Translations under genes and position numbers: made by a program
Notes under the pieces: model-generated
Database searches by the model: none
What the model was told of the DNA's origin: nothing
What the model saw: the letters and a program-made list of their open reading frames with translations, nothing else
NCBI GenBank assembly: GCA_024233575.1
Contig: JACKPN010000008.1
Location: 46,106 to 70,105, forward strand
DNA from: Chlamydiales bacterium
GTDB lineage: Bacteria > Chlamydiota > Chlamydiia > Chlamydiales > Criblamydiaceae
Reading direction: 5' to 3'
Length of the DNA: 24,000 nt
Shown here: in pieces, positions 17,554 through 24,000 of the stretch
Numbering within the stretch: position 1 is the first letter of the stretch
Layout: each line of letters begins with the position of its first letter

Positions 17554-20500
17554 TTATGCAACTATGGTAACGTTCCGAAGTCCTTCAATCGCCGCCTGCA
17601 TACGCTGCTTATTAATGATCTCTTGATTGCTGACAACAACCTGTAGCTGTGGCCGCAGCTTATGCACGGGGACGGTTGGACTAACCGGATCAGACTCATC
17701 GACAGGCTCGTCATCACGAGGCTGCTCCTGTTGAGGCGCAGTCTGCTGAACGTCTTGATCTTTGAATTTATCAAAAAGCCAATCACCTCCCCTGTAGAAG
17801 AGTGAACCTCGGGCAAAATGCTTTGCCAAGTCAACGAACCATTCAGCATCTTTCTTGAGCTTATGGCGAGCGTATAGTTTGATGGCTGCACGTATCGGCC
17901 ATGTGAGGATGTCTAAATATGGCCAAATAAATAGTTGATAAATCCCAATGGACATCGTACGGAAAAATCTTAATGCATCAATCAGCCATTTGCTCAAGTC
18001 TACATGAAACTTTCCAATATTGAATTTGATCTTGCCGAATATGGCATCGATGGCCCTCTCCAGCATGTTATGAAACGCGATCGCTTTATTGAGGAACCAG
18101 TTAGCGATTCCCATTAAGATTCCGTCAGCGCCCAGCTCGCGAATGCCTTCATGCAACTCTTCTTTTGTCCTGGCATTATTCTTTTCCATTTTCAGCTGAC
18201 GCTGATGCTCTTCTTCTTTTGTTCGCGTCAATCCGGAAGCCATATCATGCAATGGGTCGATACTTTTTTCAAGCAGCTGATTCAAAAGATCGTTCATATT
18301 ATTTTGTTCGATATATTCTTTCATAAGACGTCCGACCTGCGCCGAGGTCATTGATCTGATACGGTCAAGACGCAAGAAACGCATAAAGAACGTTGTTTGC
18401 GGGGCCATATCAGCCAACTTAACAAGCATATTACCCAGCTTTTCGTTATACATTTCTTCATCTGAGTTAACGGTCTCGAAAGTAACGCATCCGTATTTTT
18501 CCAACGCCTTCTCCAATCTTCTTAAATTAGAGGGTCGCTCGAGGGTAACGCGGAAACCCGGGTTAAGGTCTTTGAATTTAATCGTGAAGTGGTTGTTTTT
18601 ACGCGTTTCTGTCTTTTCGATGGTAAACGTTGTATCTTCGACAAATAACGGAGGAGGGCACATCTTACCTTCTTTAGGTCCTGTACAATTTTTCATATAT
18701 TCACCAAAAGTCGAAGCTATCTGGCTGATTTCTTCTTCGGTGAAGTCGCGGTTGTTACGATCAAACTCCCTATTGTTAGTTACATGCTTGATCATATTAA
18801 CAAGCAAAAGAAGCATTTTATTAAGAGATGCTCCCGATGTCATTTCTTTGATCACAACCGCCATGATCTCTGGGGCTGCAGTTTCTTCTAATATTTTCCA
18901 AAGTTCTCCCTGGATAGCCTCGTGTACCGGTAAATCTTCCGGTCCGTTGAAACCCAGGACAGCCAACATTTGTTTAGCTCTTGGTTTACAGAAATGTTTA
19001 ACCAAACGTTCATGGTTCTTCTTCTCGATTGCCTGTATCAGCTTCTTGCCATAGACATCCATTTCCTCAGCAGTGCGTTCTGTCATTTGTGCAATAGTTG
19101 CAGCCAAGATTTCGCCCAACTTTAACTTTTCAGTATAAGTCAATGTGTCCAAATCAAGAGGGATAAGGCTATGAATGCTGAGCTTCTGCTCATCGGTGAG
19201 GTTCAGGCTGTCAGAAAGAACATGAGATACAAGTGTAATCTTATCATCGTCAGTCAATGATACCTGAATTGCTGGATGAGGATTCTTCAATCCCTTTTCA
19301 GCATTTTCAAGCTGACCGGCACCTGAACCCGTTGGATTAATCTCTTCCACATATTCGGTCAGAAGACTGATCATTCCGAGAAGAACTTCATGTTTCACTT
19401 CATTATTTTCGACATCATCTAGTTTTTTTGTCAGGTTTGCAAAAGCTTTAACAGCAATAGCGCTAGCTATTTCGGCGACACCGTCGAAGACCTTAGAGTC
19501 GTAGGCGCCATCTCTTTTAGCAAGCACTTCAATGTTACGAGCTGCAAGCTCTTTGCACTTTTCCTGCATCTCGCCATCTAGTTGTTCGAGACATTTTTTT
19601 GGAATATCTACACCGGCAAGTATACCAACAATTGCCTCGCTATTGATTGCCATCTGGTTTGGAATCAGCTTTGCAATGAAGTGCCCCAAAGCGCCTGCAC
19701 CGTCCATGATATTTTGCAGTTTTTGCTTCAAAACATCGCTGTCGTCGTAGATTTTTTTGTAAATTTCTTCGATAACTTCCTTGCCAGCTTCTTTTTCTTG
19801 CAACGGCTTCGTAAATCCCTCGAATACGCCACTGAAAAGTTCGGGAAGGGTATTATTGACAAGTTGGTCGAGAGCAATATCTTTCAACGCAGAAGGCATA
19901 TTGTACCCATCAAAAGGATGAGTATAAGCGATCTGCAAATGATCCAATGTAAAGGAAGCGCCACTCGACATATGAAACAATTCAAGATACTCCTCCGGGA
20001 GGGCAGGATTCATCATCTTGAGATCAACGCACAGCTTTACAAGTTCATCGGTAACACGACCTTCCATATAACATTTGATCAGCTCTTGATGGAACCCTTC
20101 CGGCGCTTCGATCGTCGGACTCTTGAGCTTGACAGTCATTAAAATGAACTCTCTTGCTGCAGGCAGGAAATAGTCGGCAAGTTTTCGCTCTAAACGCTTT
20201 TTCTCTTCCGGAGAACCTTCTTGATCTCTTATTTTTTTGATAGAGATGTAAAGTGGGTAAATCTTCGGAATGTGACGATTGAGTATATCGAAGACTTTCG
20301 AAGCCAGTTCCGCTGGAAGATAAGTTAGAGAATGATCGTGCGAATCCTCTCTAAAACGCGAATCTGTAGCTTCCGCCGCCTTTGTCAGATACCAAATGAC
20401 AGCATTTCTTACGATCTGATTAACAAAGGGATCTACTCCTTGCAAGCCATTATTAACATGAAGATCGATGAGTTCTTTAACCGCATTCACATCGGTTTCA

Positions 20501-22599: not shown

Positions 22600-24000
22600 C
22601 TAAACAGTTCGATATTTCTCAAGTTTCATCTCAAGCAATAAATCCAGGACATCGTCAACGATATGGTAGATGAGCGTTTCATGAATACGCATATGCAGCT
22701 GATCAATATTTTTTGGTGACTGGGTAGCGAATGAAACTTCTAAAATCGATCTAGAAAGCTTGTAAATGGGAATGAAAAGAATGCGCAGGAACGCACCGAT
22801 CATATCGAAAAATATCACGCGGAAAATTGAATCTATCTTTTGTTTGAACGCAGCCCCTTTCTCTCCGAACCAGTCATTTATTTTACGATCAAGGAAACCC
22901 TGAAGCCTTTTCCATGCCCGCTCAAGAACTGCACGTATTTCCTCTTCACTTTTATCGACTGCTTTTTCCGCCATTAGTTGCTCAAGATATTTCTTATTCT
23001 TCTTTGTCTCCTCTTTTTCCTTGCGCAGCGCATTATCTCGTCCTTCTTGTGTGTTGGGAAAGTAAAAAGAAGCGACAGGCATCGGTTCGCGTATTGGAAC
23101 GCCGGAAGTCCCCTGAATCACTTTCATCGGAACGAATAACTCTTCGCTTCGCAACCCTTTCCATTGTCCTTCATGAAATAACGGAAGCCACGCGACGATA
23201 ATCTTGTCGACAATTTGGGTGATATTAACATATGACAGATGAGATCTCAGCGTTCGTCCAATTTTATCAGCAGCCAGATCCCGCAATTTCTTCGCTTTGA
23301 AAGGAAGAGTGTAGAGAGAGGAAGGCAAGAAATCGATAATTTCTTTAAAACAGTTTCCAATAATCTCATCAAAAGCGTAGCTGTTACTCTCGTCATCTGC
23401 GGAAAATGCTGCATTATCGATATTTTCAAGAAGGCATGCTACGGTGATGTCGACGATCCGCGGTGAACCAAGAACCGTGGAGCCGCCCATCATTATAGTG
23501 GGAATCATTTGTTCCGTTACCACTTCCCATATCACCTCCTTCAAAGCTGCAGGAAAAGGAAATTTTTCCGGGGAGTTCACGTCGCCCAATTCCATAATTT
23601 TTTTGGTCGTTGGAGCAAAGAAACGATCGATCCGATGATCTTCCTGTTGTTCTTGAGTCATCTTTGAGTCAGTCGACACGGCAGGATGGAGAATTGTCCG
23701 ATCGTACTCCTGAAGCAATTTGTCATAAGAAACTTTCGATAAATCTCCTGTTCTTAGCTTATTTTTGATCCGGTTCAATTCGCCGATATGCTCGATAATG
23801 CGCACTGCCACTTTATCAGCAATCTTATTTCGCAGATCGACAGTATCGATAGATGAGATGTTTTCGAACGCTTGGGTAAAGATCACAAGGATCATGGACT
23901 CGACGTATTCTGCAGCAACAGACCACGTTTGCAAAAATTCCGGCCTTGTCTCGGGCCCCGCCAATCTTTCAATATTATCTCGCAGTACCCGAGCAATCTT
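22600..24000 (-). CDS. Large hypothetical protein, 5' end outside the window; paralog of the C-terminal part of the 1497-aa protein
   Basis: The frame stays open past the track's TTG at 23964 to the window edge (...KIARVLRDNIER-LAGPETRP...). By-eye alignment to residues ~855-1395 of the 1497-aa protein shows shared blocks; see findings. Confidence 0.8.
   Translation of the reverse strand, partial: KIARVLRDNIERLAGPETRPEFLQTWSVAAEYVESMILVIFTQAFENISSIDTVDLRNKIADKVAVRIIEHIGELNRIKNKLRTGDLSKVSYDKLLQEYDRTILHPAVSTDSKMTQEQQEDHRIDRFFAPTTKKIMELGDVNSPEKFPFPAALKEVIWEVVTEQMIPTIMMGGSTVLGSPRIVDITVACLLENIDNAAFSADDESNSYAFDEIIGNCFKEIIDFLPSSLYTLPFKAKKLRDLAADKIGRTLRSHLSYVNITQIVDKIIVAWLPLFHEGQWKGLRSEELFVPMKVIQGTSGVPIREPMPVASFYFPNTQEGRDNALRKEKEETKKNKKYLEQLMAEKAVDKSEEEIRAVLERAWKRLQGFLDRKINDWFGEKGAAFKQKIDSIFRVIFFDMIGAFLRILFIPIYKLSRSILEVSFATQSPKNIDQLHMRIHETLIYHIVDDVLDLLLEMKLEKYRTV

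Follow-up and report, generated by a model that had tools for sequence, protein, structure and literature searches.

Chlamydiae remodel host cells through secreted proteins, and to our knowledge the effectors of the environmental lineages are for the most part still unrecognised, as they lack detectable homologues. The locus considered here lies in a 24,000-nucleotide (nt) stretch, hereafter the window, of a metagenome-assembled genome (MAG) named "Chlamydiales bacterium" and placed in the Criblamydiaceae (GenBank assembly GCA_024233575.1, contig JACKPN010000008.1, positions 46,106–70,105 of the forward strand). It consists of two large open reading frames (ORFs) arranged in tandem on the minus strand: a giant ORF of 1497 amino acids (aa; 17554–22047), identical to GenBank H7A37_07520, in which the annotated start is the third codon (1495 aa), and, upstream of it, a partial ORF of 466 codons (22600–24000) that is open at the window edge. 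These coordinates bear out the layout described in an initial annotation made by eye, with only one small ORF in the gap between the two genes (22047–22600).

Among the closest described systems are the Inc proteins, which are type III-secreted. A bilobed hydrophobic domain, defined as two transmembrane helices of 15–32 residues with a loop of fewer than 30 aa, 40–60 residues in all, inserts them into the inclusion membrane (Dehoux et al., 2011; PMC3048545). The family to which the two ORFs belong resembles them in being linked to Chlamydiota, largely alpha-helical, devoid of a Sec signal, fast-evolving and present in paralogous clusters, and many of its members have a turn-former in the middle of a hydrophobic segment. 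Yet, in contrast to the two clear transmembrane helices of Incs, this segment is of 19–34 aa, C-terminal and missing in the giant; moreover, the family proteins are far larger, are built on a tandem unit of ~200 aa and have no detected sequence homology to a named Inc. In turn, the LGR proteins of Protochlamydia amoebophila likewise form a paralogous family of chlamydial proteins of very large size, in which concatenated repeats account for the variation in length, but they are reported to consist of short leucine-rich repeats encoded by GC-rich genes (PMC2216083). Compared with them, our family has a ~200-aa helical unit, no leucine-rich repeat or other Pfam signature, and genes that are GC-poorer than their neighbours. 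Legionella and the environmental chlamydiae also possess eukaryote-like repeat effectors (ankyrin, TPR, MavL-type). These share with our family modular repeats and lineage restriction, and ankyrin and MavL-like genes adjoin some family members; the difference is that the family has no recognisable eukaryotic domain and its unit no Pfam, PDB or NCBIfam counterpart. Literature searches on the family, the MAG accessions and the locus-tag prefixes returned nothing relevant. The family is an orphan not described before, although its kind is familiar, namely that of large, fast-evolving, repeat-built chlamydial proteins.

Homology of the two proteins and extent of the family

BLASTP with compositional adjustment gave two collinear matches between the giant and the partial ORF products, both with marginal E-values: giant residues 1008–1062 with partial residues 116–170 (3e-5) and giant 1195–1372 with partial 205–415 (2e-3 to 2e-4). 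In Smith–Waterman alignment the pair reached z = 5.6–5.8 and none of 300 composition-preserving shuffles attained the real score, while a soft-gap alignment covered giant residues 837–1372 and partial residues 8–415, in good agreement with the module proposed by eye (giant ~855–1395). The question is decided by a profile hidden Markov model (HMM) trained on C-terminal modules from 20 further members of the family and on neither window protein. It scored 273.6 bits on the partial ORF (residues 2–458) and 175.2 bits on the giant (residues 831–1440), against at most 6.6 bits on 400 shuffled decoys. Because of this distance between 175–274 bits and the shuffles, the likeness is neither chance nor compositional, and we conclude from the sequences that the two proteins are homologous. 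The opposite reading, chance or the shared composition of low-complexity helical sequence, could draw on the pairwise identity of just 16–24%, the modest direct BLASTP values and the two of four hand-aligned blocks that lie out of family-profile register, but BLASTP is significant despite compositional adjustment, no shuffle matched the Smith–Waterman score and the leave-out HMM refutes it, so that we give it practically no credence.

The claim of tandem paralogues with a common conserved C-terminal module is upheld, with E-values that are significant (3e-5) and a similarity that exceeds compositional bias. At the level of single blocks, the HMM-guided pair alignment (16% identity over 413 columns) places blocks 1 and 3 of the initial annotation in register, the third being the first BLASTP match. 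Block 4, which falls within the second match, had been assigned to the right region with its first half off by ~17 residues, the family motif pairing DWFGEK with DAIFGK and not with NWFLNK; block 2 is ambiguous, with two candidate sites in the giant.

The family extends beyond this genome. An exhaustive phmmer search of 1.8 billion protein representatives with giant residues 298–1497, in which the partial ORF took no part, recruited 23 other proteins of 385–2378 aa with E-values down to 3e-13; most of them match through the block-3 region, while two match best through the tail that ends the module. In total the family comprises about 25 known proteins of ~1.0–2.4 thousand aa, all from metagenomes. 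The named members all stem from MAGs labelled Chlamydiota, Chlamydiia or Chlamydiales, the others being metagenome proteins, each the sole member of its own 90%-identity cluster; a Chlam_OMP6 gene is found on the contig of one relative. The giant is a divergent member, and the partial ORF is closer to the relatives than to the giant (e.g., P0003 at E 5e-63). In its closest relatives, which measure 1284–1855 aa (leaving aside P0024, a frameshift-split fragment), the module forms the C-terminal end, and the partial ORF itself is cut by the window edge at position 2 of the module profile. The truncated upstream gene is thus very probably large, as had been anticipated, a size judged from the relatives only.

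Other searches contributed little. Look-ups of the giant and its GenBank form by exact protein identity led to no contig, peptide-pattern scans of genome and metagenome contigs with the partial ORF gave no match, and tblastn against plasmids gave none either. A word-indexed protein search, in which the giant found itself only and the partial ORF and the family alignment found nothing, also missed known members and is uninformative. Conservation in the broad family alignment was nowhere sufficient for a locus scan, and a scan with a closer subgroup pointed to one GTDB genome only. Neither the two window proteins nor five full-length relatives matched a family in Pfam or NCBIfam, and neither profile searches of PDB sequences nor Foldseek searches of PDB gave a match.

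Repeat units, tail and predicted structure

Judged from profile searches, the members of the family are chains of three to seven tandem helical units of ~190–230 aa followed by a unique tail. In iterated jackhmmer searches the first ~200 module positions recur three to six times upstream in every full-length member. An HMM of this unit, made from 55 internal units of other members and no window sequence, detects four units in the giant, one in the portion of the partial ORF that lies inside the window and four to seven in the relatives. The unit consensus reads …F-x-P-L-x3-L-L-x2-A-G…(P-E-D)-L-P-V-P…W…L-P-x2-L…Y-x-D. The chain of units ends in a unique tail of ~250 aa that contains the motifs L-N-E-A-C-G, W-x2-F-Q…F-G-x2-G-L and H-x2-I-H-E-N-L-x-Y and a hydrophobic helix of 19–34 residues. 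The "variable N-terminal parts" proposed by the initial annotation thus turn out to repeat the initial ~200 residues of the module in tandem, with about four units in the giant; since the unit profile finds the same helical unit there, these regions are not unrelated. We regard homology, family and architecture, taken together, as nearly certain.

In the giant, all on the minus strand, unit 1 lies at 21367–21801 (aa 83–227; domain E 8e-13) and unit 2, a partial match, at 20866–21123 (aa 309–394; 1e-4). Unit 3 (19711–20454) is split by an insertion into aa 532–637 and 715–779 (E 3e-5 and 5e-3), and jackhmmer matches the region as a whole at 521–795 (1e-12). The terminal unit 4 (18781–19548, aa 834–1089; E 8e-18), in which the first BLASTP match falls, bears blocks 1–3 and the motif FCKPRAK…PEDLPVHEAIQGELW…APEIM. 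It is followed by the tail (17728–18780, aa 1090–1440), which opens with a giant-specific insertion of ~90 aa and which the leave-out HMM aligns up to its position 449. In the partial ORF, also on the minus strand, the last unit with blocks 1–3 inside it occupies 23488–23997 (aa 2–171; E 1e-17), and the tail with the stop codon 22600–23487, both within the span of the leave-out HMM match.

The description of the module as membrane-proximal would fit only one of the two proteins. By a Kyte–Doolittle scan (threshold 1.4), a crude measure, the partial ORF has a single hydrophobic stretch at aa 389–415 (27 aa; nt 22756–22836) with a maximum of 2.06, i.e., one segment of 22–27 aa, whereas the counterpart in the giant, at about aa 1346–1392, has none at or above the threshold and is too weak for a transmembrane call. 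At the conserved C-terminal position, a hydrophobic stretch of 19–34 residues is present in 15 of 24 members, the giant not among them. No Sec signal peptide was seen in the family proteins.

Almost wholly alpha-helical proteins are also what AlphaFold2 predicts, the models being all-alpha save for a small beta element. The module model reached a predicted local distance difference test score (pLDDT) of 70 and a predicted TM-score of 0.67 and contains a very long helix (318–435); the unit model reached a pLDDT of 77. For the partial ORF the pLDDT was 80–93 at aa 101–200 and just 49–66 at aa 51–100.

A kept chromosomal address, fast divergence and possible roles

We found that the tandem arrangement recurs at the same place in other MAGs. 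In Chlamydiota bacterium XB_MAG261 (L003), a 1284-aa member and P0006 (2859–6713 and 6911–11491) are followed by MtaB, a 343-aa ORF, LigA, SodC, MiaB and L13, which is the window order; in JGI 3300014198 (L009), a 1430-aa member and P0010 (3083–7372 and 7781–11908) are followed by MtaB, a 361-aa ORF and LigA. Both pairs stand immediately upstream of mtaB. In JGI 3300082588 (L001), a single member lies between LigA and an ankyrin-repeat gene with MtaB beyond, in a locally inverted order. The mtaB–ligA address is therefore common to the tandem pairs of the window, L003 and L009 and to the single copy of L001. A second kept address, where Lactamase_B, an HflX-like GTPase and RadC precede a family gene, was observed in L008 (672–9020, P0003) and L002 (7050–15919, P0004), and in a further locus (L010) the member P0018 stands directly upstream of mlaE.

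The giant scores 97.6 bits with P0006 and 28.5 bits with the upstream copy of L003, while the partial ORF scores 162.5 bits with that upstream copy and 102.8 bits with P0006. Because of these cross-wise scores, the comparison indicates that the pair already existed before the window organism and XB_MAG261 diverged. Both L009 copies fall in the subgroup of P0006 and the subgroup make-up of the pair differs between genomes; the duplication history is not simple. In the neighbour-joining tree of modules the distances are saturated (>2) and support is weak, and its subgroups are indicative only. The genes are thus locally duplicated, as had been stated, in the sense of tandem paralogy; a recent event does not fit, given the 16% protein identity and the pairs at mtaB–ligA in two other MAGs. 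We also rejected recent duplication or gene conversion on the DNA sequence, since no direct repeats of at least 20 nt occur in 17554–24000 and nothing links the two genes at the DNA level.

Comparison of the window with L003 or L001 gives 21–24% identity for family genes in the same position and 58–79% for the flanking S9, L13, MiaB, SodC, LigA and MtaB, so by this measure of protein identity the gene pair is evolving several times faster than its neighbours. The GC content of the family genes is 43% vs. 46–55% in the neighbours. The ratio of nonsynonymous to synonymous substitutions is not measurable here, because at the 16–24% identity of paralogues and positional orthologues synonymous sites are saturated.

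The best explanation overall, to which we assign a probability of roughly 55%, is that the two genes are ancient tandem paralogues of a helical-repeat family with a host-directed role. The functional part by itself, that is, a secreted, host-directed and membrane-associating role, is the leading candidate, and we place it somewhat short of an even chance. It is favoured because the named members all belong to an obligately intracellular phylum, because divergence is extreme and the numbers of repeats and of copies vary, and because the proteins have no Sec signal, polar N-termini, effector-type neighbours and, in many cases, a C-terminal hydrophobic helix. Across 19 full-length members, S, T, N, Q, P and G make up 45.5% of the N-terminal 50 residues vs. 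28.5% elsewhere (p = 1e-5). A gene for a 1060-aa ankyrin-repeat protein directly follows that of P0002 (L001 14692–17874), and one for a MavL-like protein that of P0013 (L007 8457–10262). According to this proposal, the family proteins would be exported, most plausibly by type III secretion of the chlamydial cell; the hydrophobic helix near the C-terminus would tie them to a membrane, either of the inclusion or of a host organelle, and the helical array of variable length would offer host factors a long scaffold or tether. An effector or surface protein under diversifying selection, as suggested in the initial annotation, would be plausible.

Several observations weigh against a host-directed role. 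The N-terminal composition suggests a type III signal only loosely, and the N-terminus of the giant is not polar-enriched (0.30 vs. 0.27). The giant has no clear hydrophobic segment, and its membrane association may not hold. Ankyrin and MavL-like neighbours occur in two loci only, the structural models are of moderate confidence only (pLDDT 70 and 77), and Pfam, NCBIfam, PDB sequences and PDB folds offered no homology clue to function. Finally, a cytoplasmic or envelope role inside the bacterium would fit the same sequence features.

Such a role could take the form of big cytoplasm-facing scaffolds anchored in or on the inner membrane by the C-terminal hydrophobic helix, e.g., as a part of the cytoskeleton, of division or of the developmental cycle. 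The absence of a signal peptide agrees with this, as a lone C-terminal helix would keep the bulk of the protein cytoplasmic, and so does the stable place among mtaB, ligA, sodC, miaB and rplM/rpsI in several MAGs, with the stop codon of the giant close to the same-strand mtaB. But identity of 21–24% against 58–79% in the neighbours speaks against it; variation from three to seven units, in copy number and in subgroup, together with lower GC, is unusual for core structural proteins, and the giant and several other members lack the hydrophobic helix. We consider bacterial scaffolds less likely than a secreted role. A more far-reaching and rather improbable version of the host-directed role is that the family represents a new structural class, a length-tunable array of ~200-aa units with a C-terminal helix anchor, which would tether host organelles to, or space them from, the inclusion or the bacterial surface. 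Each unit would show an F-x-P-L…LPVP…W surface, reach would depend on how many units a protein has, and the mtaB–ligA paralogues would have diverged toward different host partners.

That the proteins are Incs is doubtful, and slightly more so than the tether model. All members come either from MAGs labelled as Chlamydiota or from metagenome contigs without a label, many have hydrophobic stretches with a central G or P (e.g., DILHFIFFDVLGPVFDFIVFKVIWFFVDMKIA in P0002), and they are rich in alpha-helix, as are many predicted Incs (PMC3048545). However, a stretch of 19–34 residues, often containing D, K or R, differs from the published bilobed domain; by hydropathy it is absent in the giant and eight other members, and where present it lies near the C-terminus. 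In the Kyte–Doolittle scan the bilobed arrangement was seen in neither window protein, the partial ORF having one 27-aa stretch and the giant none. Far less probable still is that the module is a diverged eukaryote-like PXA domain, lipid-binding or lipid-transferring, taken from the host: the PXA domain of sorting nexins is helical too and residues 42–122 of the partial ORF gave a sub-threshold match to it in Pfam (PF02194; E 1.6e-3, 19.1 bits vs. a cutoff of 27), but we rejected this as chance, with the signal present in one of 14 family modules and not reproduced in the 13 other members, no Pfam match in the five full-length relatives at E ≤ 0.01 and no match to a PDB fold or sequence.

The work defines a coherent family that Pfam and NCBIfam miss, and provides a family profile, a domain grammar of units followed by a tail, conserved motifs and a fixed chromosomal address. 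Chlamydial biologists thereby gain a defined set of candidates to assay for secretion and localisation, and structural work gains a new repeat fold. Should the proteins prove not to be secreted, they would instead be a structural part of the chlamydial cell that evolves rapidly and has so far gone unrecognised; either way, MAG genes now labelled "hypothetical protein" gain an annotation.

Small ORF, transcription units and neighbouring genes

The small ORF between the two family genes (22263–22553, minus strand) encodes 96 aa with an isoelectric point of 5.0 and has an AAGGAG ribosome-binding site before the ATG at 22553. It has no match in Pfam or NCBIfam, and tblastn found no significant match in the loci of seven relatives (L001–L007); in L003 the paralogues are 198 nt apart, which is too short for such an ORF. 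For a type III secretion chaperone one would expect a small acidic protein, encoded beside its substrate and bearing the fold or signature of such a family; the size, acidity and place of this ORF just downstream of the partial ORF stand alongside the lack of a Pfam or NCBIfam match. We also considered, and rejected, a decayed repeat unit: P0011 matches the small ORF in pairwise BLASTP at E 6e-4, but with the family HMMs its score does not rise above those of 500 shuffles.

A run of nine G (22421–22429, minus strand), encoding W-G-G-V-W within the small ORF, is the only G or C run of at least 8 in the window, where 0.14 are expected. A G8 or G10 variant would shorten the small ORF to 48 or 55 aa, and the tract could be a slipped-strand on/off switch or a hotspot of assembly error.

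Downstream of the small ORF, a terminator-like hairpin (22194–22236, minus strand) with a 9-bp stem followed by U7 would part the upstream transcription unit from the giant; the 56-nt stretch that holds it folds as RNA at -14.2 kcal/mol (z = -3.0). A promoter-like site is found upstream of the giant. From these signals, the partial and small ORFs probably form one transcription unit and the giant, possibly with mtaB, another.

The housekeeping order of the window is BamA and TamB; an IS66 transposase; MlaE, MlaF, MlaD and YqgE; S9 and L13; MiaB, SodC and LigA; a 328-aa ORF; and MtaB. The mtaB gene (16211–17509, minus strand), encoding a radical S-adenosylmethionine methylthiotransferase, starts 45 nt past the stop codon of the giant on the same strand. 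Another radical S-adenosylmethionine methylthiotransferase is encoded by miaB (11317–12639, plus strand), whose 3' neighbour sodC (12632–13168, minus strand) is convergent with it and overlaps it by 8 nt. MiaB and MtaB are thus methylthiotransferase paralogues encoded at most 5 kb apart, a layout kept in L001, L003 and L009. In the same three loci, the position of the 328-aa ORF between ligA and mtaB (15228–16214, minus strand) is kept as well. This ORF has no NCBIfam match and its product is ~32% identical in L001 and L003, far under its housekeeping neighbours. The IS66-family transposase gene (5257–6606, minus strand; 238 bits) lies between tamB and mlaE, and its GC content of 41.6%, or 35% at third codon positions, is clearly lower than in the neighbouring genes.

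In sample ERZ25039604, family genes are split over several adjacent ORFs that match successive parts of the profile (L002 15829–16176; L004 7207–13263). The splits probably stem from frameshifts in the assembly and do not mark genuine pseudogenes, and P0004 and P0024 would therefore be under-length.

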